DNA from: Methanothrix sp.
Lineage (GTDB): Archaea; Halobacteriota; Methanosarcinia; Methanotrichales; Methanotrichaceae
Assembly (NCBI GenBank): GCA_040770465.1
Contig: JAXGJB010000021.1
Coordinates: 1-40,758, forward strand
Direction of reading: 5' to 3'
Length of the DNA stretch: 40,758 nucleotides
The position numbers were made by a program, and so were the translations under genes. The first letter of the stretch is position 1; each line of letters starts with the position of its first letter. The notes under the pieces are model-generated. The model was given only the letters and a program-made list of their open reading frames with translations. It was not told the origin of the DNA and made no database searches. Of the stretch, positions 1 through 18,685 are shown piece after piece.

Positions 1-1
1 A

Positions 2-1462
2 GGTTTCTTGAAGCTGCCGACGAACACCTCGCCTCGCCAGACGACCCCCCTCTTCGAGGCTACCGAGGACTACACCGGGAGCTTCAAGGTTGTGGAGAAG
101 GTCGACGAGTACGGGTCGGCCGTCACATCTGAGAAGGCCGCCTCAGGCTCGGGCCTCGTCGTCGTCGATAAACGGGTCGGCGACAGCCAGAGGAGCTACG
201 AGTCGGGTGCGGGCAGCTACGACTCTGAGGAGCTGATCGAGACCTACACCAACTACATCGCCAAAGACATCAGCGTCGTCAACTCGCCGATGAACCAGAG
301 CCTAACGGGCGACGTCTCGATCAACAGCTCGATGAAGTGGAAGGAGGGTATGTACTCGAAGGTGCCAGAGACGAGCTTCATCGGCGAGGAGTACACCTCG
401 ATAACGGAGATGGACAAGGAGACGGTGGCCAAGGGCCTGAACGAGATGGACACGTTGGCGAACTTCTCAGGGAACGCGAGGTACCGAGCGATCCTCAAGG
501 ACGAGGTCGACTTCGATGAGGCTTACTCCGGAGACTACTCGGTCGAGCGGCGTGTGATGTTCTCCGGGACGGCTAAGTACGACCGTCCCCACCTGAACGT
601 CACCAAGACCCTCGACGGCATCTCCGAGGAGAAGGAAGATTGTGATGCAGGAAACTGCAGCAAGACGAAGTACATAGCGACCTACACCATAACAATCGAG
701 AACGACGGGAACGCCGCTCTGGGCCCGATCGAGGTGAAGGACTTCTTCCCGCCGGGTGCGGTCTTCGATGAGCCGTCGTCGCTCCGACCGACTGAGTTGA
801 CGGAGACGAGCGCCAACTGGACTCTGACCCACCTTGCGATAGGCGACGTGGCGACGATCACTCTGAAGCTTGACGTGGCGAAGTACTACCCCGAGGAGCT
901 GGTTAATAGAGTCGAGGTCTGCGGCGGTTACGGCGACGGTTGGGTCTGCGCCTCGAACTTCAGCGCGCTCGAGCTGAACTGGCTCAGCTGCTGTCTTGAC
1001 GAGCCGGTCTCGGCGACGAAGACGGCGGAGGTCGACGACGCTGACCCTGACGTTGTCTGGTACAGGATCGATATCATGAACCGCGACAACGTCACCCGTG
1101 CGGCGACTGTGACCGATCATCTCCCCGAGGGGATGGTTCTGCTCGACAGCATGGTCCCCTTCGCATCTTACAACGGCAGCACCATCACCTGGAACCTGAT
1201 CGATATCGGGCCGTTTGAGACGGTGACGATCCCCTATCGTGTCAGCGCCCAGCATCCCGGAAGGTTCGTCAACTCCGTATTGGTCGACGCCAGATCTGTC
1301 GACGGTCCCGTTGTTCAGCCGATCCGGGCGAGCTCGACGGTCGAGGTCGGCGAGCCTTCGGAGTGCGAGTCCACAGCCTGCGGGCTGTGGAGCCCGCCCA
1401 ACTGGGAGTTCGAGTACGTCGGAAGCTATTCGGGCGACTTGACCTGCGCGGATCTGAGCTGA
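2..1462 (+). CDS. 3' part of giant secreted surface protein, cassette copy 1 (5' end lies outside the window)
   Basis: Frame is open from the window edge. Nearly identical to the C-termini of 3586..8982 and 11106..18551, with two DUF11-like domains (LNVTK...YTITIEN.G, V.D.LP.G) and the end WSPPNWEFEYVGSYSGDLTCADLS. Confidence 0.9.
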   Translation, partial: GFLKLPTNTSPRQTTPLFEATEDYTGSFKVVEKVDEYGSAVTSEKAASGSGLVVVDKRVGDSQRSYESGAGSYDSEELIETYTNYIAKDISVVNSPMNQSLTGDVSINSSMKWKEGMYSKVPETSFIGEEYTSITEMDKETVAKGLNEMDTLANFSGNARYRAILKDEVDFDEAYSGDYSVERRVMFSGTAKYDRPHLNVTKTLDGISEEKEDCDAGNCSKTKYIATYTITIENDGNAALGPIEVKDFFPPGAVFDEPSSLRPTELTETSANWTLTHLAIGDVATITLKLDVAKYYPEELVNRVEVCGGYGDGWVCASNFSALELNWLSCCLDEPVSATKTAEVDDADPDVVWYRIDIMNRDNVTRAATVTDHLPEGMVLLDSMVPFASYNGSTITWNLIDIGPFETVTIPYRVSAQHPGRFVNSVLVDARSVDGPVVQPIRASSTVEVGEPSECESTACGLWSPPNWEFEYVGSYSGDLTCADLS

Positions 1463-1492
1463 ATGATCTGAGCTGAACCGAGGGAGGATTCT

Positions 1493-1533
1493 GCCCCGCG
1501 GCCTCGAACGAGGGCGGGGCCTTTACATATTTC
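1493..1533 (+). terminator. Hairpin plus T-rich tract after giant gene copy 1
   Basis: gccccgc-gg-cctc-gaac-gagg-gcggggc followed by ctttacatattt; the same hairpin follows all three copies. Confidence 0.55.
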
Positions 1534-1974
1534 ATCCAAATCCCGTCAAAATCAGAACTTCCCGAGATCTCTTTCCTCGGGCGCAGGGTCTCTGGATAGA
1601 AAAAGATGCATCATCTATCGGGATGGTCCGCTCTGGAACGTCTTCATCACAGATCCACTGCTGGTCGTTTTGGATCTCATCGGGGGCAATGACTGCCAAG
1701 GGAGATCATAGTTCCGGAGAACCTCATAAAACTTCCACCGCAAAACTTGAAAGGCAACGATGGGTCGCCTATCTGAGCCAGGTCCAAACCGCTCTCTATG
1801 TCCTCCTCCTCCTCCCGCCTTAGACTCAACCACCTTCCGCGCATCCCGGGGATGCTGTCCGGAAGAATTTCATCCCGGAATGGAGGGATCTTCTGTCCAT
1901 CTGAGCCAATGTAGGATAAGACGGTGAAGAGTCTCACGACCTTGGACCAATTCCAAGGGATGATGCCATAAAGG

Positions 1975-2315
1975 ACAGATTCAAAAAAGATACAATTTAA
2001 TCATAATTTTATATAGTATTAAATACAAATAGAATCGGATCGTATCTCAGATTTATAAACAATCGGCCAGCTCGACGCAGATTTAAAGATTAAAAAGAAA
2101 AATATTAATTTTAAATTTTTGTTTTTCAGAATGGCAAGGTCTTGAAACTGCCTCATTATCGATATGCTTATATCGAATTCCTATATTTCTACCTACGGAC
2201 TGTTATAAAACGAATATCAAATCATTATACTATAATTAATCTTGAAATCGACGTGCACCTACATCTTTCAGCAGAAAGGTACATATAGCCAATATCTCCC
2301 AAACAAGTTAATAGA
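1975..2315 (+). promoter_or_regulatory. AT-rich promoter region of cassette 2
   Basis: Very AT-rich island in GC-rich DNA with several TTTATA/TTATA boxes upstream of the co-directional ORF chain; exact TATA box not resolved. Confidence 0.5.
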
Positions 2316-2333
2316 GATTGTTGAGGGAGGGAG

Positions 2334-2607
2334 ACGGTCTATTTCGCGGTCCATCTCATCTTATTATTCGACTGCCATCCGTCTGGCAGTCTCCAGAAGC
2401 TTGGAGACGGGCATCTGCCAGCTTGGGCGCTCTCTCACCCCAGGAGATCAAAATAGTAATCAAGGCGGCAGACAAAATATGAATTCATGTAATTTTATGT
2501 TAATGTTGATCGGCAGCCACATATTCACGGCTTCAGGCTCGGCAGAGCCTCAGGTCTGCGTGACCTGCACATACGAGCCCCATTTCTCCGGAGAGGCGGG
2601 TGTTTGA
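2334..2607 (+). pseudogene. Probable decayed paralog of the 215-aa secreted domain
   Basis: GGAGGG then ACG-VYFAVHLILLF (signal-peptide-like). The 3' end reads SAEPQVCVTCTYEP, matching SADSRLCVTYTY and SEMCVKYTY. Its stop overlaps the next start. Confidence 0.45.
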
Positions 2608-3251
2608 TGATGACTCATAGAATTTCACTGCTCTTGCTTTTTGCTCTCGCAACGATCGCCGGCCCATCAGCGGCTTCGATGGCGTATGAGGACTGCAGCT
2701 ACGTCTCCGAGAGGACCCTCAATTTCGACCCCCCTCAGATCCATGTAATTGATCTATTCGATCCGGATCTGGGAGACCTCGTCCGGGTCGACGTCAACCT
2801 CAGCGTCAACTGGTCAGAGAGCATCAGCTACCACAACCGGGACTCTTACGCCAAGGACGTCAATACCACCACGGATCTGAACCTTTTCGTGCAGATGCCC
2901 GACGGGTCGGATCTCGGTACAAACTATACCGATCTCGTTCTTCACAACGTCTCGGCTTATAACGGCACCAACCCCCTCACCTTCGCCCCTCCCGAGGGTT
3001 TCGATTACGAGCAGACGGCTTTCACCTGGGCCACCATCAGCTTCACCGATGATGAAGATCTGAAGGCCTTCACATCGGGGGAAGATGACGATACGATGGA
3101 GCTATCCATATCCACAGAGAGCATCGTCAAATGCGACGACCGGGGTAACAGAGCCTTTTCCGTCCTCACCTCTGCGGACAGCCGCCTTTGCGTCACGTAC
3201 ACTTACAACGCCTCTACGACGATGGCATCGGCGTCAGGGGGGTCCATATGA
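2607..3251 (+). CDS. Secreted ~215-aa protein, choice-of-anchor E-like domain
   Basis: Signal peptide (HRISLLLLFALATIAGPSAA), LFDPDLGDLVRV motif, C-terminal CVTYTY; paralogous to the N-terminal domain of the giant proteins. Start could be 2604 (TTG), 2607 or 2610. Confidence 0.8.
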   Translation: MMTHRISLLLLFALATIAGPSAASMAYEDCSYVSERTLNFDPPQIHVIDLFDPDLGDLVRVDVNLSVNWSESISYHNRDSYAKDVNTTTDLNLFVQMPDGSDLGTNYTDLVLHNVSAYNGTNPLTFAPPEGFDYEQTAFTWATISFTDDEDLKAFTSGEDDDTMELSISTESIVKCDDRGNRAFSVLTSADSRLCVTYTYNASTTMASASGGSI

Positions 3252-3589
3252 TGAGTGCAGTTCCTTCGGCATATCCCGATACCGACTTCGATCTCGATCC
3301 CTCATCCGTCCCGGATAGTGCGGGCGGGGTTCGGCATCTTTGCGGGTCCATCCCGGTCGGTGCCCCGGGTCGTGAATTCATTCTGTGGTTGAGGTCCCGG
3401 AGGTCGGAGGCCGGCTTCTCGGATCGATCCAACGCGGAGGCCCCTTCGGAGGCCTCACCACATTATGATGATAAATATTCAAGATGTATAACGGGGGCAT
3501 CAGGCGATTCCTGGGCCACCATATCTCATGTTCGTGTTACTGACGTTCGTGTTACAGACGTTCCTGAATCCGGTGGTGATTTGCGATGA
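3248..3589 (+). CDS. 113-aa ORF of unknown function, possibly a degenerate paralog or translational-coupling linker
   Basis: ATGA overlaps at both ends (3248-3251 and 3586-3589); stays open in both cassette copies; carries GGTGGTGA RBS for the giant gene. Confidence 0.4.
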   Translation: MMSAVPSAYPDTDFDLDPSSVPDSAGGVRHLCGSIPVGAPGREFILWLRSRRSEAGFSDRSNAEAPSEASPHYDDKYSRCITGASGDSWATISHVRVTDVRVTDVPESGGDLR

Positions 3590-6500
3590 ATCTGACAAGA
3601 TTGTTTCTCGCGATTTTGCTCCTCCTGCTGTTGGTGGGGCAGTCGTCGGCAGCGCTGAGGGAAGTGGTCGACTGCAGCGTATCCCAGAACGAAACGCTCG
3701 TTTATACTCCCGCACAGAATCACGTAGTTGACCTCTTCGACCCCGATCTGGGGACCCTCGTCCAGGTCGATGTCAACCTCAGCATGGACTCGACCTACTT
3801 TATAAAGTATCAAAACCAGAACAATGCCCCCAAGAATGTCATGATCACATTGGACTACGGCCTCGGCATCACCATGCCCAGCGGGTCGGTTCTGGGGGTG
3901 GACTTCTATAACGTCAGCACCCATAGCGTTTTGGCTCTTACTAATCCGGAATACACTTTTAAGCCACCCGACGGCTTCAACTTTACGGGTCAGAACTTCA
4001 CCAACGTCTCCATCAGCTACACCGACTGTGCCAACCTGTCGGCATTCACGGCGACGTTCAATGGTGAGACGAAGACCTTCCCGATCGCGACCTTTAATTT
4101 TGTAGTCAGCAACGACACCAGCGCCAGAATTGAGGATTATGTGGTTTATGCCCTATCAGAGATGTGCGTCAAGTACACCTATGATGATGAGAAGCTGAAG
4201 ATCACCAAGACGGGGAACACCTCGGGCCCCGCCAAATTCGGAGAAGAGATCAAGTATGAGATCGAGGTCTGCAACCCCACAACCATCACCGTCTACAACG
4301 TCAACGTATACGACAGCCTCCTTTCTGGAAGCCCGTTCTTCCTGGGGACGCTTGCTCCGACAGACTGCAGGAACGTCACCGCCTCCCTGAACTACACGGT
4401 GACCGAGGACGACGTCTGTCGCGGCTGGATCAACAACACCGCCAACGCGACCGGTGAGGACGTCTGCGGCTCCGTAATCGAGACCGATAAGAACGCCACC
4501 TGGAACGTGAGCACGAGCTACAACGCCTCGATGAACATCACCAAGACGGCGAACACCTCGGGACCTGTCTCATACGGCGATATCATCACGTATACGATCA
4601 ACGTCACCAACACAGGAGACGTCGACCTGACCGGGGTCAAAGTTGTTGACGATCTCTTGAGACCCTCGGGCTGGCCGATGATCAAGCTTGTGCCCGGCGA
4701 GAGTTATAACTATATAATCCAATACCAGGTCAAGTTGCAAGACGTCACCAGGGGCTTCATCGTCAACAACGCCACGGCCAACGGAACCGATCCTTGCAGC
4801 GGAGCTGTGGGGCCGGTGGAGGCCAACGTTACACTCGACGTGAACAAATTCTGCATCTCGGGCAAAAAGGTCATCAACTGCTTCCAGGCCGACCTCTCAG
4901 GCTGGAATATCACCCTGTACGACGCAAGTGGAACCACGCTTCTGAACTGGACCCTGACCAACACCACCGGGTACTACGAGTTCTGCGGCCTCGATCCTGG
5001 CGACTACATAGTCTGCGAGACGGCCAGGCCCGACTACACCAACGTCACCGACTCCTGCGTCAAAGTCGGTCTGCACGATAACGAGACCGGCATTGACTTC
5101 GAGAACGATCCCCTCCTCTGCATCTCAGGCCACAAGATCATCCACTGCGTCCAGGCCGACCTCTCGGGTTGGAATATCACCCTGTACGACGCCGGTGGAA
5201 GGCTGCTGGACTGGAACCTGACCGACGCCACCGGGTACTACGAGTTCTGCGGCCTCAAACGAGGCAGCTACAGAGTCTGCGAGGAGGTCAAGAACGGCTA
5301 CACCAACGTCAGCGACACTTGCAAAAACGTGACCCTCAACGGCTGCGTTAACGTGACCGGCATCGACTTCGAGAACGATCCCCTCCTCTGCATCTCAGGC
5401 CACAAGATCATCGTCAACTGCCCCAATGCCGATCGATCTGGCTGGAATATAACCCTGTACGACGCCGGTGGAAAGCTGCTGGACTGGAACCTGACCGACG
5501 CCACCGGGTACTATAAGTTCTGCGGCCTCAAACGAGGCGACTACAGAGTCTGCGAGGAGGTCAAGAACGGCTACACCAACGTCAGCGACACTTGCAGAGA
5601 TGTGCCCCTCAACGGCTGCGTTAACGTGACTGGCATCGACTTCGAGAACGAGCCTCTCCTCTGCATATCGGGCCACAAGATCATCAACCATGCCGGAGCC
5701 GACCTCTCTGACTGGAATATCACCCTGTACGACGCCGGTGGAAAGCTGCTGGACTGGAACCTGACCAACGCCACCGGATACTACTCGTTCTGCGGCCTTG
5801 TCCCCGGCAGCTACAGAGTCTGCGAGACGGCTCGGCTCGGCTACATCAACGTCACCGACGCTTGCGAAGATGTGACCCTCATCTGCAATAATGCGATCGT
5901 CGACTTCGAGAACCAGCCCCACCTTACCTGCATCGGCGGCTACAAGCTCGACACCTTCGGCAAGGGGCTCGAGGGCTGGACGATCTTCGTCGATTATAAC
6001 AACAGCGGGACCCTGGACCCAGGCGAACCGTACAACGTCACCGATGCCAACGGACGCTGGCGGATCTGTGACCTGGTGGTGGGAAGCAATGTCAACCTCA
6101 CTGAGGTCCTCAAGGCCGGGTGGAAGCCCGTGGACCCGGCCGGCGGCTGTCAGCAGGTAACGGTCCGAGCCAACGATACCGACGACTACAACTTCACCAA
6201 CGAGCCTTACGACCTCTGCATTTCAGGGTACAAGATCAACAACTGCACCGGCGGTACGATTCCAGGCTGGACGGTCTCCCTTTACAACGAAACGGGTGAC
6301 TGGATAAAGAACGCCACGACCGACGCCGACGGGTGGTACGCCTTCACCGGCCTCAGTCCAGGCAACTACACCGTCTGCGAAGACCTCCCGGCTGGGTGGA
6401 CGAACGTCAGCGAGAGATGCATCGACGTCCCTCTCGGAGTGATCAACGTCTCGGACCAGAACTTCACCAACGATCCGCCGGGCTGCATATTTGGGCGCAA

Positions 6501-8982
6501 GCTCGACTTCACAAACAACAAAGGCCTTGAAGGCTGGACGATGGTCCTCAAGAACGCCACAGGAGGAAAGCTCGACGAGAAGAAGACCGACGCTGACGGC
6601 AGGTACTGGTTCTGCGGCCTTGTTCCCGGCGACTACACCGTCTGCGAAGTCCCCCAGTCGGGGTGGACGAACGTGACGCCCATCTGCCAGAACGTCACCC
6701 TCCTTCCCTGCGGTGGAGCGGCCCTGGACTTCATCAACGACCCGAGGAACAACCTCACCATCACCAAGGAGGCTGACAAATACGAAGTCCAGGAGTGTGA
6801 ACTGGTGAACTACACCATCCGTGTCTGTAACGGCGGCGGAGCTTCGGTCGGAAACGTCACCGTCTGGGACATCTTCAACAGGTACGTCGAGATCCTCTCG
6901 ATGTCACCGGCTCCCGGCCCCGACGACAAGTGGCACTTCGCCTCGATCCCGGCAGGCGAATGCGCCGTGATAACGATCAGGATCAAAGTGCCCGAACGTC
7001 AGGACTTCGAGTTCGGGATGGAACAGGGCGTCAGCGGCGAAGGTTTCGTCAACGTCGCCAACGACTACAGCACGACCTTCGAAGAGTACCTGATCAAGAA
7101 CTGCGCCTACGCCACCAGCGACTGGAACGTCGACCCCATCTCGTCTTGCATCTGCGTGACTGTTGGAGCCGATATGGGCACCGAGCTTGAGACCCGCGAG
7201 TACGGAAGCGGCCGCTACGACAGCGAAGAGAAGGTCGACGTCTACACCGAGAACAAGTCGATCGAGTGGGAGGAGGACGTCTCAGCCGGCTACAATCCCA
7301 CGACCCTGACTTTGTACAACAACCGGACCGTCTCCTACGACTCGGCCTGGGTCAAGAAGGCTCGGGCGAAGAACTACGTCACAGGGGCCTCTATGTCCGA
7401 GACCTACCACGACGCCGCATGGCTCGACCGTGAGTCGAGGATCTTCCTCGACGAGAACGAGTCGGTTATGGCGGTCGAGAGCGAGTTCGACGGCCGGGGC
7501 CACATCGGTTTCCTCAAACTGCCGACGAACACCTCGCCTCGCCAGACGACCCCCCTCTTCGAGGCGACCGAGGACTACACCGGGAGCTTCAAGGTGGTGG
7601 AGAAGATCGACGAGTACGGGTCGGCCGTCACCTCTGAGAAGGCCGCGTCGGGTTCGGGGCTGGTGGTCGTCGATAAGAGGGTCGGCGAGAGCCAGAGGAG
7701 CTACGAGTCGGGTGCGGGCAGCTACGACTCTGAGGAGCTGATCGAGACCTACACGAGCTACATCGCCAAAGACATCAGCGTCGTCAACTCGCCGATGAAC
7801 CAGAGCCTAACGGGCGACGTCTCGATCAACAGCTCGATGAAGTGGAAGGAGGGGATCTATTCGAAGGTACCAGAGACGAGCTTCATCGGCGAGGAGTACA
7901 CATCGATAACGGAGCTTGACAAGGAGACGGTGGCCAGGGGCTTGAACGAGATGGACACGTTGGCGAACTTCTCCGGGCAGGCGAGGTACCGAGCGATCCT
8001 GAAGGACGAGGTCGACATTGATGAGGCTTACTCCGGAGACTACTCGGTCGAGCGGCGGGTGATGTTCATCGGGACTGCTAAGTACGACCGGCCCCACCTG
8101 AACGTCACCAAGACGTTGGACGGGATCGTCGAGGAGACGGAGCCGTGGGGTTACAACGAGACCCATCTGCCGGGCGAGGTGAAGAAGAGAACGGTTGCGA
8201 CTTACACCATATCAATCGAGAACGACGGGAACACAGCACTCGGCCCGATATACGTGAGAGACCTCTTCCCGCCGGGAGCGGTCTTCGATGAGCCGTCGTC
8301 GCTCCGACCGACTGAGTTGACGGAGACGAGCACCAACTGGACTCTGACGCACCTTGCGATAGGCGACGTGGCGACGATCACCCTCCGGCTTGACGTGACG
8401 AAGTACTACCCCGAGGAGCTGACCAACAGGGTCGAGGTCTGCGGCGGGTACGGCGATGGTTGGGTCTGCGCCTCGAACTTCAGCTCTATCGAGTTGAACT
8501 GGCTCAGCTGCTGTCTTGACGATCCGGTCTCGGTGACGAAGACGGCGGAGGTCGACGACGCTGACCCTGACGTTGTCTGGTACAGGATCGACATCATGAA
8601 CCGTGACAACGTCACCCGTGCGGCGACTGTGACCGATCACCTCCCCGAGGGGATGGTTCTGCTCGACAGCATGGTCCCCTTCGCATCTTACAACGGCAGC
8701 ACCATCACCTGGAACCTGATCGATATCGGGCCGTTTGAGACGGTGACGATCCCCTATCGTGTCAGCGCCCAGCATCCCGGAAGGTTCGTCAACTCCGTAT
8801 TGGTCGACGCCAGATCTGTCGACGGTCCCGTTGTTCAGCCGATCCGGGCGAGCTCGACGGTCGAGGTCGGCGAGCCTTCGGAGTGCGAGTCCACAGCCTG
8901 CGGGCTGTGGAGCCCGCCCAACTGGGAGTTCGAGTACGTCGGAAGCTATTCGGGCGACTTGACCTGCGCGGATCTGAGCTGA
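3586..8982 (+). CDS. Giant secreted surface glycoprotein, copy 2 (1798 aa): signal peptide, choice-of-anchor E-like domain, 2 DUF11/DUF7507-like, 7 SdrD-B/CnaB-like, conserved C-terminal block
   Basis: Long ORF, signal peptide MNLTRLFLAILLLLLLVGQSSA, CISG.K...Y.VCE...F.N repeats, many N-X-S/T sequons. Confidence 0.9.
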   Translation: MNLTRLFLAILLLLLLVGQSSAALREVVDCSVSQNETLVYTPAQNHVVDLFDPDLGTLVQVDVNLSMDSTYFIKYQNQNNAPKNVMITLDYGLGITMPSGSVLGVDFYNVSTHSVLALTNPEYTFKPPDGFNFTGQNFTNVSISYTDCANLSAFTATFNGETKTFPIATFNFVVSNDTSARIEDYVVYALSEMCVKYTYDDEKLKITKTGNTSGPAKFGEEIKYEIEVCNPTTITVYNVNVYDSLLSGSPFFLGTLAPTDCRNVTASLNYTVTEDDVCRGWINNTANATGEDVCGSVIETDKNATWNVSTSYNASMNITKTANTSGPVSYGDIITYTINVTNTGDVDLTGVKVVDDLLRPSGWPMIKLVPGESYNYIIQYQVKLQDVTRGFIVNNATANGTDPCSGAVGPVEANVTLDVNKFCISGKKVINCFQADLSGWNITLYDASGTTLLNWTLTNTTGYYEFCGLDPGDYIVCETARPDYTNVTDSCVKVGLHDNETGIDFENDPLLCISGHKIIHCVQADLSGWNITLYDAGGRLLDWNLTDATGYYEFCGLKRGSYRVCEEVKNGYTNVSDTCKNVTLNGCVNVTGIDFENDPLLCISGHKIIVNCPNADRSGWNITLYDAGGKLLDWNLTDATGYYKFCGLKRGDYRVCEEVKNGYTNVSDTCRDVPLNGCVNVTGIDFENEPLLCISGHKIINHAGADLSDWNITLYDAGGKLLDWNLTNATGYYSFCGLVPGSYRVCETARLGYINVTDACEDVTLICNNAIVDFENQPHLTCIGGYKLDTFGKGLEGWTIFVDYNNSGTLDPGEPYNVTDANGRWRICDLVVGSNVNLTEVLKAGWKPVDPAGGCQQVTVRANDTDDYNFTNEPYDLCISGYKINNCTGGTIPGWTVSLYNETGDWIKNATTDADGWYAFTGLSPGNYTVCEDLPAGWTNVSERCIDVPLGVINVSDQNFTNDPPGCIFGRKLDFTNNKGLEGWTMVLKNATGGKLDEKKTDADGRYWFCGLVPGDYTVCEVPQSGWTNVTPICQNVTLLPCGGAALDFINDPRNNLTITKEADKYEVQECELVNYTIRVCNGGGASVGNVTVWDIFNRYVEILSMSPAPGPDDKWHFASIPAGECAVITIRIKVPERQDFEFGMEQGVSGEGFVNVANDYSTTFEEYLIKNCAYATSDWNVDPISSCICVTVGADMGTELETREYGSGRYDSEEKVDVYTENKSIEWEEDVSAGYNPTTLTLYNNRTVSYDSAWVKKARAKNYVTGASMSETYHDAAWLDRESRIFLDENESVMAVESEFDGRGHIGFLKLPTNTSPRQTTPLFEATEDYTGSFKVVEKIDEYGSAVTSEKAASGSGLVVVDKRVGESQRSYESGAGSYDSEELIETYTSYIAKDISVVNSPMNQSLTGDVSINSSMKWKEGIYSKVPETSFIGEEYTSITELDKETVARGLNEMDTLANFSGQARYRAILKDEVDIDEAYSGDYSVERRVMFIGTAKYDRPHLNVTKTLDGIVEETEPWGYNETHLPGEVKKRTVATYTISIENDGNTALGPIYVRDLFPPGAVFDEPSSLRPTELTETSTNWTLTHLAIGDVATITLRLDVTKYYPEELTNRVEVCGGYGDGWVCASNFSSIELNWLSCCLDDPVSVTKTAEVDDADPDVVWYRIDIMNRDNVTRAATVTDHLPEGMVLLDSMVPFASYNGSTITWNLIDIGPFETVTIPYRVSAQHPGRFVNSVLVDARSVDGPVVQPIRASSTVEVGEPSECESTACGLWSPPNWEFEYVGSYSGDLTCADLS
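4852..6740 (+). repeat. Seven ~90-aa SdrD-B/CnaB-like coding repeats
   Basis: Repeat starts (CIxGxK) at 4852, 5119, 5389, 5662, 5929, 6217, 6484; the first four are highly similar in DNA. Confidence 0.85.
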
Positions 8983-9012
8983 ATGATCTGAGCTGAACCG
9001 AGGGAGGATTCT

Positions 9013-9053
9013 GCCCCGCGGCCTCGAACGAGGGCGGGGCCTTTACATATTTC
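9013..9053 (+). terminator. Hairpin plus T-rich tract after giant gene copy 2
   Basis: Identical to 1493-1533. Confidence 0.55.
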
Positions 9054-9840: not shown

Positions 9841-9853
9841 TCGAGGGAGGGAG

Positions 9854-10127: not shown

Positions 10128-10771
10128 TGATGACTCATAGAATTTCACTGCTCTTGCTTTTTGCTCTCGCAACGATCGCCGGCCCATCAGCGGCTTCGAT
10201 GGCGTATGAGGACTGCAGCTACGTCTCCGAGAGGACCCTCAATTTCGACCCCCCTCAGATCCATGTAATTGATCTATTCGATCCGGATCTGGGAGACCTC
10301 GTCCGGGTCGACGTCAACCTCAGCGTCAACTGGTCAGAGAGCATCAGCTACCACAACCGGGACTCTTACGCCAAGGACGTCAATACCACCACGGATCTGA
10401 ACCTTTTCGTGCAGATGCCCGACGGGTCGGATCTCGGTACAAACTATACCGATCTCGTTCTTCACAACGTCTCGGCTTATAACGGCACCAACCCCCTCAC
10501 CTTCGCCCCTCCCGAGGGTTTCGATTACGAGCAGACGGCTTTCACCTGGGCCACCATCAGCTTCACCGATGATGAAGATCTGAAGGCCTTCACATCGGGG
10601 GAAGATGACGATACGATGGAGCTGTCCATATCCACAGAAAGCATCGTCAAATGCGACGACCGGGGCAACAGGGCCTTTTCCGTCCTCACCTCTGCGGACA
10701 GCCGCCTTTGCGTCAAGTACACTTACAACGCCTCTACGACGATGGCATCGGCGTCAGGGGGGTCCATATGA
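10127..10771 (+). CDS. Secreted ~215-aa protein, choice-of-anchor E-like domain (second copy)
   Basis: Differs from 2607..3251 by one visible residue (CVKYTY vs CVTYTY). Confidence 0.8.
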   Translation: MMTHRISLLLLFALATIAGPSAASMAYEDCSYVSERTLNFDPPQIHVIDLFDPDLGDLVRVDVNLSVNWSESISYHNRDSYAKDVNTTTDLNLFVQMPDGSDLGTNYTDLVLHNVSAYNGTNPLTFAPPEGFDYEQTAFTWATISFTDDEDLKAFTSGEDDDTMELSISTESIVKCDDRGNRAFSVLTSADSRLCVKYTYNASTTMASASGGSI

Positions 10772-11109
10772 TGAGAGCAGTTCCCTCGACATATCCCGAT
10801 ATCGACTTCGATCTCGATCCCTCATCCGTCCCGGATAGAGTGGGCGGGGTTTGGCATCTTTGCGGTTCCATCACGGTCGGTGCGCCGGGTCATGAATTCG
10901 TTCGGGGGTCGAGGTCCCGGAGGTCGGATGCCGGCCTCTCGGATCGATCCGACGTGGAGGCCCCCTCGGAGGCCACATATCATTCTGATAATAAATATTC
11001 AAGATGTATAAAGGGAGCATCAGGCGATTCCTGGGCCTCCATATATCATGTTCGTGTTACAGATGTTCGTGTTACAGACGTTCCTGAATCCGGTGGTGAT
11101 TTGCAATGA
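10768..11109 (+). CDS. 113-aa ORF of unknown function (copy of 3248..3589)
   Basis: Same length, ATGA overlaps at both ends, many amino-acid changes. Confidence 0.4.
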   Translation: MMRAVPSTYPDIDFDLDPSSVPDRVGGVWHLCGSITVGAPGHEFVRGSRSRRSDAGLSDRSDVEAPSEATYHSDNKYSRCIKGASGDSWASIYHVRVTDVRVTDVPESGGDLQ

Positions 11110-14100
11110 ATCTGACAAGATTGCTTTTCGCGATTTTGCTCCTCCTGCTGTTGGTGGGGCAGTCGTCGGCAGTGCTGAGGGAAGAGGTCGACTGCAGCGT
11201 GACCCTGAACAAAACTCTCACTTATACTCCCGCACAAAATCACGTCGTTGACCTCTTCGACCCCGATTTGGGGACCCTGGTCCAGGTCGATGTCAACCTC
11301 AGCATGAACTCGACCCACTTTATAAAGTATCAAAACCGGAACGATGCCCCCAAGACTGTCATGATCACATTGGACTACGGCCTCGGCGTCAACATGCCCA
11401 GCGGCTCGTATCTGGGGGTGGACTTCTATAACGTCAGCAACCATAGCGTTTCGGCTTATGTTGGTCCGCTATATTCTTTTAAGCCACCCGACGGCTTCAA
11501 CTTTACGGGTCGAAACTTCACCAACGTCTCCATCAGCTACACCGACTGTGCCAACCTGTCGGCGTTCACGGCGACGTTCGATGGAGAGACGAAGACCTTC
11601 CCGATCGCGACTTTTAATTTTATAGTTGACAACGACACCGGGGCAAAAGCTACGGATTATGTGGTTTATGCCTTTTCCGAGATGTGCGTCAAGTACACCT
11701 ACGATGATGATAAGCTGAACATCACCAAGACGGGGAACACCACCGGCCCCGCCGGCGTCGGCGACGTCATCGAGTACGAGATCGAGGTCTGTAACCCCAC
11801 CACCGTTACCGTCTACAACGTCACCGTATACGACAGCCTCCTTTCTGGAAGCCCGTTCTTCATAGGGACGATAAACCCGAACAATTGCAGTAACGTCTCC
11901 GTCAGCCTGAACTACACGGTGACCGAGGACGACGTCTGTCGCGGCTGGATCAACAACACCGCCAACGCGACCGGTGAGGACGTCTGCGGTTCCGTCATCG
12001 AGACCGATAGGAACGCCACCTGGAACGTGAGCACGAGCTACAACTCCTCGATCAACATCACCAAGACGGCGAACACCTCAGGTCCTGTCGGAATCAACCA
12101 CACCATCGAATATTACATCCGGGTCTGCAACACGGGGAACGTCACCGTCTACAACATCACGGTCAACGACAGCCTGCTCTCGGGCGATCCGTTCGATATA
12201 GGGGACCTCGATCCAGGCGATTGCAGAAATGTCACTCCCAAGACCTACGTTGTAACCGAAGATGACGCCTGCCGTGGCTGGGTTAACAACACCGCCAACG
12301 CATCAGGCGAGGACTTTTGCGGCGATCCTGTCAGTGCTCAGGCCAACACCACCTGGAACGTGAGCACGCGGTACAACTCCTCGATCAACATCACCAAGAC
12401 GGGGAACACCTCAGGTCCGGTGGGAGTCAACCACACCATCGAGTACTACATCCGGGTCTGCAACACGGGGAACGTCACCGTCTACAACATCACGGTCAAC
12501 GACAGCCTGCTCTCAGGCGACCCGTTCTGGATAGGAACCCTCGATCCAGGCGATTGCAGAAATGTCACTCCCAAGACCTACGTTGTGACCGAAGACGACG
12601 TCTGCCGCGGCTGGGTCAACAACACTGCCAACGCTTCAGGCGACGACTACTGTGGCGATCCTGTCAGAACGACCGATAACGCCACCTGGAACGTGAGCAC
12701 CCGGTACAACTCGTCGATCAACATCACCAAGACGGCCGACACCTCGGGCCCTGTTGGAGTCGATTACGATATCGAGTACTACATCCAGGTCTGTAACACC
12801 GGCAACGTCACGGTCTACAACGTGACGGTGAACGACAGCCTCCTCTCGGGCGACCCGTTCCCGATAGGCACCCTGGCACCCGGCCAGTGCAGAAACGTCA
12901 CACCTAACCCGACCCACCGGGTGACCGAAGACGACGTCTGCCGTGGCTGGGTCAACAACACCGCCAACGCATCAGGCGACGACCACTGCGGCGATCCTGT
13001 TGAGACCACTGCCAACGGGACCTGGAACGTCAGCACCCGGTACAACTCCTCGATCAACATCACCAAGACGGCCGACACCTCGGGCCCTGTTGGCCTCGAT
13101 TACGATATCGAGTACTACATCCAGGTCTGCAACACCGGCAACGTCACGGTCTACAACGTGACGGTGAATGACAGCCTTCTATCGGGCGACCCGTTCCCGA
13201 TAGGAACGCTGACACCAGGCCAGTGCAGAAACGTCACACCTAACCCGACCCACCGAGTGACCGAAGACGACGTCTGCCGCGGCTGGGTCAACAACACCGC
13301 CAACGCATCAGGCGACGACCACTGCGGTGACCCGGTCGAGACTGACGCTAACGCCACATGGAACGTCAGCACCCGGTACAACTCTTCGATCAACATCACC
13401 AAGACGGCCGACACCTCGGGCCCTGTTGGAGTCGATTACGATATCGAGTACTACATCCAGGTCTGCAACACCGGTAACGTCACGGTCTACAACGTGACGG
13501 TGAACGACAGCCTCCTCTCAGGCGATCCGTTCCCGATAGGAACGCTGACACCAGGCCAGTGCAGTAACGTCACACCTAACCCGATCCACCGGGTGACTGA
13601 AGACGACGTCTGCCGGGGCTGGGTTAACAACACCGCCAACGCTGCAGGCGACGACCACTGCGGCGATCCTGTTGAGACCACGGCCAACGGGACCTGGAAC
13701 GTCAGCACTCGGTACAACTCTTCGATCGCCATCACCAAGACTGCCGACACGTCGGGACCTGTTGGTCTCGATTACGATATCGAGTACTACATCCAGGTCT
13801 GCAACACCGGGAACGTCACGGTCTACAACGTGACGGTGAACGACAGCCTCCTCTCGGGAGATCCGTTCCCGATAGGCACCCTCTCGCCAGGCCAGTGCAG
13901 AAACGTCACACCTAACCCGATCCACCGGGTGACCGAAGACGACGTCTGCCGCGGCTGGGTCAACAACACCGCCAACGCTGCAGGCGACGACCACTGCGGC
14001 GATCCTGTCAGAACGACCGATAACGCCACCTGGAACGTCAGCACCCGGTACAACTCTTCGATCAACATCACCAAGACTGCCGACACTTCAGGTCCGGTTG

Positions 14101-17100
14101 GTCTCGATTACGATATCGAGTACTACATCCAGGTCTGTAACACCGGCAACGTCACGGTCTACAACGTGACGGTGAACGACAGCCTCCTCTCAGGCGACCC
14201 GTTCCCGATAGGCACCCTCTCACCAGGCCAGTGCAGAAACGTCACACCTAACCCGACCCACCGGGTGACCGAAGACGACGTCTGCCGCGGCTGGGTCAAC
14301 AACACCGCCAACGCTGCAGGCGACGACCACTGCGGCGATCCTGTTGAGACCACGGCCAACGGGACCTGGAACGTCAGCACCCGGTACAACTCTTCGATCA
14401 ACATCACCAAGACTGCCGACACGTCAGGCCCTGTTGGTCTCGATTACGATATCGAGTACTACATCCAGGTCTGCAACACCGGCAACGTCACGGTCTACAA
14501 CGTGACGGTGAACGACAGCCTCCTCTCGGGAGATCCGTTCCCGATAGGCACCCTCGCACCCGGCCAGTGCAGTAACGTCACACCTAACCCGATCCACCGG
14601 GTGACTGAAGACGACGTCTGCCGGGGCTGGGTCAACAACACGGCCAACGCTGCAGGCGACGACCACTGCGGCGATCCAGTGGAGACCACGGCCAACGGGA
14701 CCTGGAACGTCAGCACTCGGTACAACTCTTCGATCAACATCACCAAGACGGCGAACACCTCAGGTCCGGTGGGAGTCGACCACACCATCGAGTACTACAT
14801 CCGGGTCTGCAATACGGGCAACGTCACGGTCTACAACGTGACGGTGAACGACAGCCTGCTCTCAGGCGACCCGTTCCCGATAGGAACGCTAACACCAGGC
14901 CAGTGCAGAAACGTCACTCCCAAGACCTACGTTGTCACTGAAAACGACGTCTGCCGGGGCTGGGTCAACAACACCGCCGATGCTTCAGGCGACGACCACT
15001 GCGGCGATCCTGTTGAGACCACTGCCAACGGGACCTGGAACGTGAGGACGACCTACGACTCGTCTCTGAACATCACCAAGACTGGGAACACAACAGGTCC
15101 GGTGGGAGCCGACCACACCATCGAGTACTACATCCGGGTCTGCAACACGGGGAACGTCACGGTCTACAACGTGACTGTCAACGACAGCCTTCTATCGGGC
15201 GATCCGTTCCCGATAGGCACCCTCGCACCAGGCCAGTGCAGAAACGTCACTCCCAAGACCTACGTTGTGACCGAAGACGACGTCTGCCGGGGCTGGGTTA
15301 ACAACACGGCCAATGCTGCGGGCGACGACCACTGCGGCGATCCTGTTGAGACCACGGCAAACGCTACCTGGAACGTGAGGACGACCTACAGCTCGTCTCT
15401 GAACATCACCAAGACTGGGAACACAACAGGTCCGGTGGGAGTCGGCCACACCATCGAGTACTACATCCGTGTCTGCAACACTGGCAGCGTCACCGTCGAG
15501 AACGTGAAGGTCAACGACAGCCTTCTTTCAGGCGACCCGTTCCAGATAGGCGACCTCGATCCAGGCGAGTGCAGAAACGTCACTCCCAAGACCTACGTTG
15601 TGACTGATAACGACGTCTGCCGCGGCTGGGTTAACAACACCGCCGATGCAGCGGGCATCGACCACTGCGGCGATCCTGTCAGGACTCTGGTCAACGGGAC
15701 CTGGAGTGTCATGACGACCTACAGCTCGTCTCTGATCATCGACAAGACCGCGAACACCTCGGGCCCCGTCACCACGAATGACACGATCAGGTATACGATC
15801 AACGTCACAAACACGGGTAACGTGAACCTGACCGGGGTGCACATCGTGGACGATCTCGTGCCCCTCTTCTGGGTAATACCCGATCCTCTGGAACCCGGTG
15901 AGATGGAGACCCGCACGTTCGACTACCACGTCACCGACGCCGACCTCACCGCCGGCGAGATCGTCAACAACGCCACGGTCAACGGCACCGATCCGTGCGG
16001 CAACGATCTTGAAGCGGAAGATAATGTGACCATCACGACGATCAAATACTGCATCGACGGCCACAAGTTCGACTACTACGGAAGTCCCCTCGATAACTGG
16101 ACGATATTCATCGACCGGAACAACGATGGGAAACTCACCGCCGGCGAGCCGAATGACACCACCGACGTGAACGGTTTCTGGGAGATCTGCAACCTCAATC
16201 CCGGCATCGGATACAAGGTATGTGAAGATCTTGAAGGTCTGAACGGCAACTGGACGCCGATCAATCCTCCGGACGGCTGCCATTACAACGTGACAGCACC
16301 CAACCATAACGTGGACTTCGTCAACGACCAGAGGAACCTCACCATAGTGAAGACGGCCGACAAGTATGAGGTAAAAGAGTGCGACGAGGTCACCTACACC
16401 ATCCGCGTCTATAACGGCGGCGGAGCTTCGGTCGGAAACGTCACCGTCTGGGACATCTTCAACAGGTACGTCGAGATCCTCTCGATGTCACCGGCTCCCG
16501 GCCCCGACGGCAAATGGCACTTCGCCTCGATCCCGGCAGGCGAATACGCCGTGATAACGATCAGGATCAAAGTTCCCGAACGTCAGGACTTCGAGTTCGG
16601 GATGGAACAAGGAGTCAGCGGCGAAGGTTTCGTCAACGTCGCCAACGACTACAGCACGACCTTCGAAGAGTACCTGATCAAGAACTGCGCCTACGCCACC
16701 AGCGACTGGAACGTCGACCCCATCTCGTCTTGCATCTGCGTGACTGTTGGAGCCGATATGGGCACCGAGCTTGAGACCCGCGAGTACGGAAGCGGCCGCT
16801 ACGACAGCGAAGAGAAGGTCGACGTCTACACCGAGAACAAGTCGATCGAGTGGGAGGAGGACGTCTCAGCCGGCTACAATCCCACGACCCTGACTTTGTA
16901 CAACAACCGGACCGTCTCCTACGACTCGGCCTGGGTCAAGAAGGCTCGGGCGAAGAACTACGTCACAGGGGCCTCTATGTCCGAGACCTACCACGACGCC
17001 GCATGGCTGGACCGTGAGTCGAGGATCTTCCTCGACGAGAACGAGTCGGTTATGGCGGTCGAGAGCGAGTTCGACGGCCGGGGCCACATAGGTTTCTTGA

Positions 17101-18551
17101 AGCTTCCGACGAACACCTCGCCCCGCCAGACGACACCGCTATTCGAGGCGACCGAGGACTATACAGGCAGCTTCAAGGTTGTGGAGAAGGTCGACGAGTA
17201 CGGGTCGGCCGTCACCTCTGAGAAGGCCGCCTCAGGCTCGGGCCTCGTCGTCGTCGATAAACGGGTCGGCGACAGCCAGAGGTCCTACGAGTCGGGCGCG
17301 GGCAGCTACGACTCCGAGGAGCTGATCGAGACCTACACGAGCTACATCGCCAAAGACATCAGCGTCGTCAACTCGCCGATGAACCAGTCCCTCACTGATG
17401 ACGTCTCGATCAACAGCTCGATGAAGTGGAAGGAGGGGATGTATTCCAAGGTGCCAGAGACGAGCTTCATCGGCGAGGAGTACACCTCGATAACGGAGCT
17501 CGACAAGGAGACGGTGGCCAAGGGCCTGAACGAGATGGACACGTTGGCGAACTTCTCCGGGCAAGCTCGGTACCGAGCGATCCTCAAGGACGAGGTCGAC
17601 TTCGATGAGTCTTACTCCGGAGACTACTCGGTCGAGCGGCGTGTGATGTTCACCGGGACGGCTAAGTACGACCGGCCGCACCTGAACGTCACCAAGACCC
17701 TCGACGGCATCGCCGAGGAGAAGGAAGATTGTGATGCTGGAAACTGCAGCAAGACGAAGTACATAGCGACCTACACCATAACAATCGAGAACGACGGGAA
17801 CGCCGCCCTGGGACCGATATACGTTAAAGACTTCTTCCCGCCGGGAGCGGTCTTCGATGAGCCGTCGTCGCTCCGACCGACTGAGTTGACTGAGACGAGC
17901 GCCAACTGGACTCTGACGCACCTTGCGATAGGCGACGTGGCGACGATCACTCTGAAGCTTGACGTGGCGAAGTACTATCCGTCTGAGCTGGTTAATAGAG
18001 TCGAGGTCTGCGGCGGTTACGGCGACGTTTGGGTCTGCGCCTCGAACTTCAGCGCGCTCGAGCTGAACTGGCTCAGCTGCTGTCTCGACGAGCCGGTCTC
18101 GGCCACGAAGACGGCGGAGGTCGACGACGCTGACCCTGACGTTGTCTGGTACAGGATCGATATCAAGAACAACGACAACGTCACCCGGGCGGCGACTGTG
18201 ACCGATCATCTCCCCGAGGGGATGGTTCTGCTCGACAGCATGGTCCCCTTCGCATCTTACAACGGCAGCACCATCACCTGGAACCTGATCGATATAGGAC
18301 CTTTTGAGACGGTTACGATCCCCTATCGGGTATCGGTCCAGCATCCCGGAAGGTTCGTCAACTCAGTATTGGTCGACGCCAGATCCGTCGACGGTCCCGT
18401 TGTTCAGCCGATCCGGGCGAGCTCGACGGTCGAGGTCGGCGAGCCTTCGGAGTGCGAGTCCACAGCCTGCGGGCTGTGGAGCCCGCCCAACTGGGAGTTC
18501 GAGTATGTCGGAAGCTATTCGGGCGACCTGACCTGCGCGGATCTGAGCTGA
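11106..18551 (+). CDS. Giant secreted surface glycoprotein, copy 3 (2481 aa): signal peptide, choice-of-anchor E-like domain, 13 DUF11/DUF7507-like, 1 SdrD-B-like, conserved C-terminal block
   Basis: Long ORF, signal peptide, (S)INITKT...YYI.VCNTGNVT...V.D.L...NTA.A.G repeats. Confidence 0.9.
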   Translation: MNLTRLLFAILLLLLLVGQSSAVLREEVDCSVTLNKTLTYTPAQNHVVDLFDPDLGTLVQVDVNLSMNSTHFIKYQNRNDAPKTVMITLDYGLGVNMPSGSYLGVDFYNVSNHSVSAYVGPLYSFKPPDGFNFTGRNFTNVSISYTDCANLSAFTATFDGETKTFPIATFNFIVDNDTGAKATDYVVYAFSEMCVKYTYDDDKLNITKTGNTTGPAGVGDVIEYEIEVCNPTTVTVYNVTVYDSLLSGSPFFIGTINPNNCSNVSVSLNYTVTEDDVCRGWINNTANATGEDVCGSVIETDRNATWNVSTSYNSSINITKTANTSGPVGINHTIEYYIRVCNTGNVTVYNITVNDSLLSGDPFDIGDLDPGDCRNVTPKTYVVTEDDACRGWVNNTANASGEDFCGDPVSAQANTTWNVSTRYNSSINITKTGNTSGPVGVNHTIEYYIRVCNTGNVTVYNITVNDSLLSGDPFWIGTLDPGDCRNVTPKTYVVTEDDVCRGWVNNTANASGDDYCGDPVRTTDNATWNVSTRYNSSINITKTADTSGPVGVDYDIEYYIQVCNTGNVTVYNVTVNDSLLSGDPFPIGTLAPGQCRNVTPNPTHRVTEDDVCRGWVNNTANASGDDHCGDPVETTANGTWNVSTRYNSSINITKTADTSGPVGLDYDIEYYIQVCNTGNVTVYNVTVNDSLLSGDPFPIGTLTPGQCRNVTPNPTHRVTEDDVCRGWVNNTANASGDDHCGDPVETDANATWNVSTRYNSSINITKTADTSGPVGVDYDIEYYIQVCNTGNVTVYNVTVNDSLLSGDPFPIGTLTPGQCSNVTPNPIHRVTEDDVCRGWVNNTANAAGDDHCGDPVETTANGTWNVSTRYNSSIAITKTADTSGPVGLDYDIEYYIQVCNTGNVTVYNVTVNDSLLSGDPFPIGTLSPGQCRNVTPNPIHRVTEDDVCRGWVNNTANAAGDDHCGDPVRTTDNATWNVSTRYNSSINITKTADTSGPVGLDYDIEYYIQVCNTGNVTVYNVTVNDSLLSGDPFPIGTLSPGQCRNVTPNPTHRVTEDDVCRGWVNNTANAAGDDHCGDPVETTANGTWNVSTRYNSSINITKTADTSGPVGLDYDIEYYIQVCNTGNVTVYNVTVNDSLLSGDPFPIGTLAPGQCSNVTPNPIHRVTEDDVCRGWVNNTANAAGDDHCGDPVETTANGTWNVSTRYNSSINITKTANTSGPVGVDHTIEYYIRVCNTGNVTVYNVTVNDSLLSGDPFPIGTLTPGQCRNVTPKTYVVTENDVCRGWVNNTADASGDDHCGDPVETTANGTWNVRTTYDSSLNITKTGNTTGPVGADHTIEYYIRVCNTGNVTVYNVTVNDSLLSGDPFPIGTLAPGQCRNVTPKTYVVTEDDVCRGWVNNTANAAGDDHCGDPVETTANATWNVRTTYSSSLNITKTGNTTGPVGVGHTIEYYIRVCNTGSVTVENVKVNDSLLSGDPFQIGDLDPGECRNVTPKTYVVTDNDVCRGWVNNTADAAGIDHCGDPVRTLVNGTWSVMTTYSSSLIIDKTANTSGPVTTNDTIRYTINVTNTGNVNLTGVHIVDDLVPLFWVIPDPLEPGEMETRTFDYHVTDADLTAGEIVNNATVNGTDPCGNDLEAEDNVTITTIKYCIDGHKFDYYGSPLDNWTIFIDRNNDGKLTAGEPNDTTDVNGFWEICNLNPGIGYKVCEDLEGLNGNWTPINPPDGCHYNVTAPNHNVDFVNDQRNLTIVKTADKYEVKECDEVTYTIRVYNGGGASVGNVTVWDIFNRYVEILSMSPAPGPDGKWHFASIPAGEYAVITIRIKVPERQDFEFGMEQGVSGEGFVNVANDYSTTFEEYLIKNCAYATSDWNVDPISSCICVTVGADMGTELETREYGSGRYDSEEKVDVYTENKSIEWEEDVSAGYNPTTLTLYNNRTVSYDSAWVKKARAKNYVTGASMSETYHDAAWLDRESRIFLDENESVMAVESEFDGRGHIGFLKLPTNTSPRQTTPLFEATEDYTGSFKVVEKVDEYGSAVTSEKAASGSGLVVVDKRVGDSQRSYESGAGSYDSEELIETYTSYIAKDISVVNSPMNQSLTDDVSINSSMKWKEGMYSKVPETSFIGEEYTSITELDKETVAKGLNEMDTLANFSGQARYRAILKDEVDFDESYSGDYSVERRVMFTGTAKYDRPHLNVTKTLDGIAEEKEDCDAGNCSKTKYIATYTITIENDGNAALGPIYVKDFFPPGAVFDEPSSLRPTELTETSANWTLTHLAIGDVATITLKLDVAKYYPSELVNRVEVCGGYGDVWVCASNFSALELNWLSCCLDEPVSATKTAEVDDADPDVVWYRIDIKNNDNVTRAATVTDHLPEGMVLLDSMVPFASYNGSTITWNLIDIGPFETVTIPYRVSVQHPGRFVNSVLVDARSVDGPVVQPIRASSTVEVGEPSECESTACGLWSPPNWEFEYVGSYSGDLTCADLS
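11715..16045 (+). repeat. Thirteen 333/336-bp in-frame tandem repeats
   Basis: ITK/IDK codons start at 11721, 12057, 12390, 12723, 13059, 13395, 13731, 14067, 14403, 14739, 15072, 15405, 15738. Confidence 0.92.
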
Positions 18552-18581
18552 ATGATCTGAGCTGAACCGAGGGAGGCCTTT

Positions 18582-18623
18582 GCCCCGCGGCCTCGAACGA
18601 GGGCGGGGCCGTTACATTTTTTC
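18582..18623 (+). terminator. Hairpin plus oligo-T after giant gene copy 3
   Basis: Same hairpin followed by acatttttt. Confidence 0.6.
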
Positions 18624-18685
18624 AACTCGACTATTTCTTCCATCCAGAGGAAAGCCATATACCGTTGCAGGTAGAACTTCCGCTC

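Follow-up and report, generated by a model that had tools for sequence, protein, structure and literature searches.

The window, i.e. the whole stretch of DNA that was analysed, is the complete contig C21 of genome G000 and spans 40,758 nucleotides (here and below, G denotes a genome, C a contig, L a metagenome locus and X a run). It opens with three head-to-tail units: a partial unit 1 (1-1532), truncated as the contig start falls within its giant gene, and two complete ones, unit 2 (1533-9052) and unit 3 (9053-18621). In each complete unit, an AT-rich upstream region is followed by a 42-aa ORF, a 214-aa ORF, a 113-codon frame, a giant ORF and a hairpin, with all four ORFs overlapping end to start. 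The 214-aa ORF and the N-terminal part of each giant encode a choice-of-anchor E (CAE) domain, while a double SH (amyloid-like sheath) core is located towards the C-terminus of the giants.

1..1462, + strand: 3' part of giant gene 1, truncated at the contig start; encodes the latter half of the double SH core, a pair of DUF11 domains and a Cys-rich tail
1493..1520, + strand: hairpin copy 1, GC-rich and terminator-like, after the stop
1533..2478, no strand: unit 2 upstream region with AT-rich core (GC 0.31 at 1951-2330)
2479..2607, + strand: 42-aa ORF, presumed 3' relic of an older stand-alone CAE gene, copy 1
2607..3251, + strand: stand-alone secreted CAE protein (NF033208), 214 aa, putative tip partner, copy 1
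3248..3589, + strand: 113-codon open frame, copy 1, overlapping both neighbours by ATGA
3586..8982, + strand: giant sheath adhesin 2, 1,798 aa
3661..4186, + strand: CAE tip domain of giant 2
4187..6750, + strand: stalk of giant 2, mostly SdrD-B-like
6994..8085, + strand: double SH core of giant 2, 364 aa
9013..9040, + strand: hairpin copy 2
9053..9998, no strand: unit 3 upstream region with AT-rich core
9999..10127, + strand: 42-aa presumed CAE relic, copy 2
10127..10771, + strand: second copy of the stand-alone CAE protein, with 99.5% identity to the first
10768..11109, + strand: 113-codon frame, possible spacer, copy 2
11106..18551, + strand: giant sheath adhesin 3, 2,481 aa
11181..11706, + strand: CAE tip domain of giant 3, with 30 differences from that of giant 2 over 177 residues
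11707..16334, + strand: stalk of giant 3, DUF7507 repeats with Lys/Asp/Asn isopeptide triad
16578..17669, + strand: double SH core of giant 3, sharing 97.8% identity with that of giant 2
18582..18609, + strand: hairpin copy 3, at the array end, followed by a leuD/hacB-like gene

Organisation and assembly of the array

Self-BLAST of the window aligned 2-4569 with 7507-12089 (91.6% identity), 6725-9052 with 16312-18621 (92.0%) and 1-1532 with 17090-18621 (94.8%). This agrees with the first-pass annotation, which had described at least three head-to-tail cassettes; one is partial and two are complete. The parts it had assigned to each cassette (AT-rich region, overlapping small ORFs, giant secreted protein and common hairpin) were likewise recovered, as was its pattern of conserved ends around a swapped middle: the N-terminal domains of the two complete giants are 83% identical and their 746-aa C-termini 92.6% identical, with the middles made up of different repeat types. 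The upstream regions of units 2 and 3 share 73-83% identity in their middle part. The AT-rich stretch has a GC content of 0.31 over 380 bp, compared with about 0.58, and the promoter of each unit likely resides in its upstream region. An identical 28-nt hairpin is located 3' of all three giant stops. Its stability is not better than that of shuffled sequences (z -0.6 and -0.8), an Rfam search of positions 1-19000 gave no match, and a bacterial promoter scan, the scope of which does not include archaeal promoters, reported no terminator.

The window sequence was found to be present in 20 runs of 12 studies; three of these runs contain at least half of its words, and one is possibly the source sample. 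RNA contigs from run X4 map to both giants, which is not proof of transcription. The concern that the array as a whole might be an assembly artefact proved unfounded: with units that differ by ~8%, diverged upstream regions and different middles, the copies are too dissimilar to derive from collapsed or duplicated reads. Furthermore, two overlapping exact unitigs of run X2 (8978-9033 and 9019-9221) join the tail of a giant to the cassette upstream region. Run X1 contains both upstream types and both stalks, and tandems of an SH gene followed by a CAE pair occur in three relatives (G057, G045 and G083). A tandem of at least two units is thus well supported.

Exact repeats of 581 and 657 bp are present at the joints, so that the exact three-unit order rests on this one assembly. 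It could conceivably represent a chimera of two-unit strains, or of the same units in another order. No contig of another run spans the array, run X2 has the shared joint and nothing of unit 3's own upstream stretch, and no triple array was seen among 15 genus relatives. At metagenome loci L051/L052, moreover, a unit-3-like cassette is found behind DNA that in the window genome (C34) precedes only a 3' relic of the giant gene. The divergence between units, the X1 and X2 data and the tandems in the three relatives all argue against such a chimera, which we consider improbable.

Stalks and sheath core of the giant proteins

Both complete giants consist of a signal peptide, CAE tip, stalk, DUF11 domain, double SH core, two further DUF11 domains and a tail (WxPPxW/Cys in giant 2). 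By Pfam and NCBIfam, the C-terminal block comprises three DUF11 domains around a 364-aa stretch without family match. Each giant has a single N-terminal hydrophobic segment (mean hydropathy 2.4-2.5), which is taken as the signal peptide; hydropathy analysis revealed no further such segment, and hence no transmembrane anchor beyond it.

The stalk of giant 2 is composed of two DUF7507 and seven SdrD-B-like repeats, that of giant 3 of 13 DUF7507 repeats and one SdrD-B-like repeat. DUF7507, DUF11 and SdrD_B all score above the Pfam cut-off, indicating an Ig-like chain. In DUF11/DUF7507 domains, an isopeptide bond is formed by a Lys/Asp/Asn triad whose residues lie on the first, a middle and a late strand (PMC12617251). 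Using the same pattern, the triad was found in all 12 parsed DUF7507 repeats of giant 3 and, in full, in one of the two of giant 2; the DUF7507 repeats are hence predicted from sequence to be isopeptide-locked. Fibrillar adhesins whose stalks are built of CLIPPER domains (DUF11/DUF7507) or SdrD B-repeats resemble the giants in having a tip, an Ig stalk with isopeptide triad and a C-terminal anchor, but differ in that the anchor in the window is an amyloid-like sheath core as opposed to a sortase, archaeosortase or membrane signal (PMC12617251; statements on this and other cited work refer to the portions of each source that were covered).

SH sheath proteins contain a signal peptide and an amyloid-like core, and those with an Ig chain have been named sheath adhesins (Medvedeva, Borrel and Gribaldo 2024, PMC11576556). 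They are reported there, by computation, from Methanotrichales and ANME-1, and the published list includes two-core proteins of 785-4,560 aa, with two cores also present in the close matches of the window core. By eye, 39 and 37 of the 45 visible residues of SH core rows GCF000235565_00687 and _01557, respectively, match the start of the window core, while row _01477 equals our retrieved protein P0121 letter for letter over the visible stretch; P0121 is itself 53% identical to the window core at 99% coverage. The giants are therefore almost certainly members of the known SH sheath-adhesin family, two-core class, and not of an undescribed family as first thought; the match to published SH cores does uphold the initial reading of a sheath-associated, adhesin-like surface protein. 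Both the family and its tendency to duplicate are already in print and are not new here.

The core has 367 relatives among proteins of 638-2,000 aa. All named ones among the 120 listed belong to Methanotrichaceae, in keeping with the methanogen host that had been proposed. A profile of the core also picks up short single-core proteins in the same genome, and 255 clusters at 50% identity match the core. An atlas look-up returned unnamed clusters only. The core is internally duplicated (27% identity over 94 aa, E 1e-7). A model of the core (pLDDT 91.8) displays twelve long strands in two sets of six, positioned between the DUF11 domains, with the first sheath arch inserted inside the preceding DUF11 domain. 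No sequence match for the core or the CAE profile was found in the PDB, nor any SH or Methanotrichales sheath structure, and Foldseek with the 746-aa C-terminal model gave multi-Ig matches only (TM about 0.13). The SH monomer of the Methanospirillum sheath is a six-arch protein (PMC10593813), and the predicted twelve-arch fold is consistent with twice this monomer. Methanospirillum hungatei SH/MspA, the only member with experimental support, builds its rings from a six-arch amyloid-like core, to which the twice six long strands of the window model would correspond; it differs in having one core, a helical cap and 377 aa, with no Ig stalk in the descriptions covered (PMC10593813, PMC6242892).

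By virtue of its homology to the SH family the core probably anchors the giants in the sheath. The double core might instead polymerise alone outside the sheath, making the giants fimbria-like or matrix adhesins and not sheath subunits, given that the core in principle keeps open edge arches and that three bulky Ig domains might hinder ring packing. The core is, however, homologous to the family that includes the most highly transcribed SH proteins of Methanothrix, rings of mixed SH composition with differing caps have been modelled (PMC11576556), and two-core adhesins, mostly scattered, were found in all 16 genomes of the genus. Polymerisation outside the sheath is, on this evidence, very unlikely, and we retain the sheath as the likely site of anchorage. 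An adhesion role of the giants is probable; it is a proposal in PMC11576556, where SH genes other than the main ones are described as very weakly transcribed.

The choice-of-anchor E tip and its stand-alone counterpart

All four CAE domains of the window pass the NF033208 cut-off of 23.8 bits, with 78.9 for the stand-alone protein and 48.3 and 49.3 for the giants. Choice-of-anchor E domains are mostly bacterial and accompanied by sorting tags such as PEP-CTERM, whereas in the window the domain sits on a sheath core or stands alone; our literature search found no paper on it. Within the order, 21 of 105 genomes, belonging to two genera, contain CAE; it was not found in 300 other genomes sampled from the phylum, eight Methanotrichaceae among these. 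A bacterial origin is not supported by the profile search, which retrieved 26 proteins, the named ones being from Methanothrix. Just six of the 184 retrieved core-bearing proteins of at least 900 aa carry a CAE tip. Among the loci retrieved with wider flanks, a CAE-tipped gene with an SH core occurs in G023, G059, G052, G057 and G050 and, across a frameshift, in G088; such genes lacking the SH core were found in G045, G083, G047:C72 and G000:C42.

To describe the pairing of these genes, 65 of 74 CAE hits were used, nine fragments being dropped. There are 24 stand-alone CAE genes in 19 Methanotrichaceae genomes. Downstream of 23 of these genes, no more than 1.2 kb away and in the same orientation, lies another gene starting with CAE; the 24th is at a contig end. 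Two of the 23 downstream genes contain frameshifts, and contig ends truncate several. Among the other 41 CAE rows, 18 have no intact stand-alone neighbour, some of them at contig ends, and hence the partner is usual and not obligatory.

Of the small ORFs in the window, the 214-aa one alone clearly qualifies as a working gene, with a pN/pS of 0.08 between copies (few changes). The 113-codon frame is open in all five copies and has a pN/pS of 1.10. We rejected it as a working protein, given the lack of purifying selection and of any homologue outside these copies; it is possibly a translational spacer.

The stand-alone CAE protein is predicted to form a jelly-roll-like sandwich (pLDDT 95.5). Foldseek returned nothing convincing, the best matches (TM 0.33-0.41) being TNF-like lectins. 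In a wide structural search, a phage baseplate domain ranked first (Z 9.4, rmsd 2.8, 122 aligned residues, 9% identity), with the rest below Z 8. These matches are jelly-roll sandwiches, a common fold that indicates no function.

Modelling the tip of giant 2 with its putative partner gave a complex score of 0.67, compared with 0.00 for the best of three controls; in the reference sets, 116 of the 157 solved complexes and 2 of the 215 mismatched pairs score this high. Contact agreement between runs was at least 96%, and the pLDDT of the partner was no lower than 88. In the predicted dimer, which has pseudo-two-fold symmetry, strand 155-162 pairs antiparallel with 155-164, the same surface on both chains; the strand order would place it at the domain end away from the stalk. 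Since the two domains share 40-44% identity, this high score could stem from a general tendency of the family to self-dimerise, and close cousins also pass. With this in mind, we favour, with some reserve, a model in which the partner binds the tip of the giant.

The predicted interface is where the paralogous tips differ most. Of the positions that distinguish tips 2 and 3, 10 fall among the 28 interface residues and 20 among the 149 others (p 0.010), and the excess persists when stratified by loop and strand (odds ratio 3.3, p 0.017). Interface columns are also less conserved than the rest in both alignments (0.31 vs 0.40 and 0.36 vs 0.45). A variable tip interface facing a 99.5% constant partner is a poor fit to a fixed heterodimer, unless the contact is backbone-mediated. 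This concentration of differences, together with the use of the same surface by both chains, provides ground for a reading in terms of archaeal self-recognition. Tips on different filaments would pair, the variable interface setting the allele match such that filaments stick preferentially to matching alleles; the stand-alone CAE would be a soluble cap, re-invented from the tip, against premature or self pairing, and duplication with conversion would create new tip and stalk combinations on the amyloid anchor. Against this, distal loops vary in any binding domain, interface pN is not above pS (0.229 vs 0.218, with small counts), and the presence of CAE in only a fifth of the genomes of the order (see above) does not favour the idea. 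Both the pairing scheme and the wider picture of allele-matched filaments are therefore doubtful. A 'distal' tip region with pN above pS (0.197 vs 0.134) was at one point a candidate for positive selection; it was dropped as the region had been drawn after the differences were seen.

A tree of 55 CAE domains sheds light on the origin of the small gene. In this tree, 20 of 23 stand-alone domains, all 20 with an invariant cysteine, cluster apart from the tips of the giants, on a weak branch (82/70, not starred). The stand-alone CAE of the window and two close relatives are instead sister to the window's own tips (100/96), and the starred branches require two origins of the stand-alone form. The 42-aa ORF resembles the end of the stand-alone CAE of G000:C42, and in L051/L052 the 5' part of an older stand-alone CAE gene is fused to the same last 13 codons. 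We infer from this likeness and these fusions that the older partner degenerated and was replaced by a duplicate of the tip. Thus the window partner appears to derive from the tip of a giant, separately from the older partner, in a presumed replacement that left a relic.

The same derivation could reflect an ordinary birth and death of sheath-gene duplicates, in which the stand-alone CAE is a truncated duplicate or free decoy that makes no lasting contact with the giant. SH genes are known to duplicate in clusters, with many copies per genome (PMC11576556), 3' relics of the giant gene are present on six other contigs (C14, C5, C34, C4, C11 and C6), and many CAE loci in relatives are frameshifted. 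Such turnover would nevertheless leave the separate cluster with its invariant cysteine, the near-constant upstream place of the stand-alone genes, the low pN/pS of the window copies and the passing complex model without ready explanation, and we regard it as unlikely, if less so than allele-matched self-recognition.

Diversification and proposed mechanism

The core is under strong purifying selection, with pN/pS values of 0.09 and 0.17, and the tip under weak purifying selection, the first 200 N-terminal codons giving 0.70. Across the three window copies and a paralogue of 5,824 aa on C10, the 30 informative sites form 10 runs, where 18.1 would be expected (p 0.00045), and exact tracts of 251-657 bp recur within the array and on C10. 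These mosaics fit gene conversion or unequal crossing-over, to which cross-strain mis-assembly could add. Together with the contrast between core and tip, they bear out the notion of a diversifying system put forward at the outset. In Neisseria pilE/pilS and Borrelia vls, recombination between near-identical copies leads to mosaic surface proteins, using one expression site and promoterless partial copies of the variable region. The window is similar in that near-identical copies give rise to mosaic surface proteins, but its units are whole genes with their own upstream regions, and the relics keep the constant 3' end, in contrast to the pilS/vls scheme.

The sheath adhesins of PMC11576556 are alike in their signal peptide, two SH cores, long Ig chain, many copies and clusters of recent duplicates. 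The portions of that work covered name no tip domain or partner gene, and no conserved context was found there; its main text does not contain 'tandem', 'gene conversion' or 'recombination'. In the window, by comparison, the repeated unit is an entire cassette including its upstream region, the stalks have been exchanged and the adhesin is accompanied by a stand-alone CAE. A literature search that covered the text of papers, few subscription titles among them, turned up no account of a CAE tip, of a stand-alone partner or its double origin, of the predicted dimer or of cassette mosaics. While the SH family is known, the tip module, partner pairing and cassette-level mosaics thus appear to be new.

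Taken as a whole, the locus is best explained by a sheath-anchored giant with an Ig stalk and a variable CAE tip on which a small CAE docks, a model we consider reasonably likely. The giants would be exported by the signal peptide, as the motif suggests. By analogy with the family, the double core would then join the cross-beta rings of the sheath by co-polymerising, and the Ig-repeat stalk would project the variable CAE tip outward from the filament. According to the complex model, the small CAE from the upstream gene would dock on this tip in a head-to-head contact, completing or masking a binding head, and the capped tip may act as the binding head for partner cells, surfaces or glycans. 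Duplication and gene conversion via the near-identical core and flanks would maintain several stalk lengths and tip variants on one anchor.

Filaments of the sheath-forming Methanotrichaceae provide a scaffold for syntrophic partners (PMC10470525) and are repeatedly found in anaerobic granules, and DUF11 proteins have been tied to methanogen aggregation, as a hypothesis (PMC11224092). With sheath adhesins proposed for filament attachment in 2024, the locus is compact and amenable to testing, as it supplies a pair of natural tip alleles with a single partner, of ~180 residues each and with a confident fold, as well as a natural stalk swap on one anchor. Binding by the tip would give the choice-of-anchor E domain its first function. 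Beyond the array, the 177 N-termini of core-bearing proteins fall into 34 clusters, suggesting that the amyloid-like core is used as a display platform.

Anchor, tail and possible coupling frame of the window giants

The two complete giant adhesins of the window share a C-terminal WxPPxW motif and a cysteine-rich tail, and giant 2 displays an interlocked stalk-anchor junction upstream of it. The relevant window positions are:

6751-7170: first sheath-core arch, inside a DUF11 domain (giant 2)
8878-8982 and 18447-18551: C-terminal WxPPxW motif and cysteine-rich tail
3248-3589 and 10768-11109: 113-codon frame

In the structure model, the arch is inserted before the last two strands of the preceding DUF11 domain, and stalk and anchor of giant 2 are therefore interlocked. 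The WxPPxW/cysteine-rich tail is retained in relatives and is modelled with pLDDT under 50; its cysteines could cross-link the hoops by disulfides. The 113-codon frame is open in all five copies, one type of which carries a 15-nt in-frame deletion, and both of its end overlaps are preserved despite neutral sequence drift. It is perhaps a pure translational coupler.

Shuffling of the CAE tip

A second choice-of-anchor E (CAE) pair is located elsewhere in the genome of the window (G000):

C42:15266-19299, minus strand: older-type stand-alone CAE gene and a 1,136-aa CAE-tipped protein

The latter contains DUF7507/SdrD-B repeats without an SH core, and its unassigned 80-aa C-terminal tail is also present on the ORF at C42:22053-22934. 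In the relatives' genomes G045 and G083 (loci L039, L040, L041, L042 and L045), the CAE tip is found on cysteine-rich short repeats with different C-terminal domains. Hence, the tip is shuffled among several stalks and anchors.

Paralogues, relics and a possible related cluster

Further G000 contigs contain core-bearing genes, fragments, candidate core proteins and a decayed element:

C10:47519-64993: sheath adhesin, 5,824 aa, core 97% identical to that of the window, N-terminus different
C10:69507-71983: second core-bearing gene, 4.5 kb after the adhesin, cut by the contig end
C14:845-1076, C5:87604-87772, C34:27627-28349, C4:44309-44659, C11:46559-46762 and C6:15717-16499: 3' relics of the window giant gene
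C10:39120, C28:9845, C24:20907, C38:16748, C19:15479, C14:32581, C14:34010, C16:15197 and C51:8515: short proteins weakly matched by the core profile
C34:26885-27634 (also metagenome loci L051:1367-2117 and L052): decayed transposase-like element with inverted ends

Both C10 genes have patches of sequence in common with the window copies. The hairpin is kept in two of the six relics, and loose ends in other sequencing runs fall at matching positions; thus at least some relics are real. The decayed element, which may be IS481-like, directly precedes a full cassette in L051 and L052, whereas at C34 it is followed by an adhesin tail alone. The short proteins are likely single-core sheath proteins.

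Two retrieved CAE-tipped sheath adhesins and one window-type partner (P0004, P0322, P0284) have the same longest-contig value (173,428 bases), which hints that a related species may have a cluster like that of the window. Along its length, P0004 shares 81% identity with giant 2.

Array neighbours

The genes beside the array are ordinary:

18665-40683 (window): leuD/hacB-like, DUF7714 and isopropylmalate-type dehydrogenase genes; nitrogenase-like and Mur-ligase-like genes; several ABC metal or peptide transporters

The nitrogenase-like and Mur-ligase-like genes probably serve F430 synthesis.
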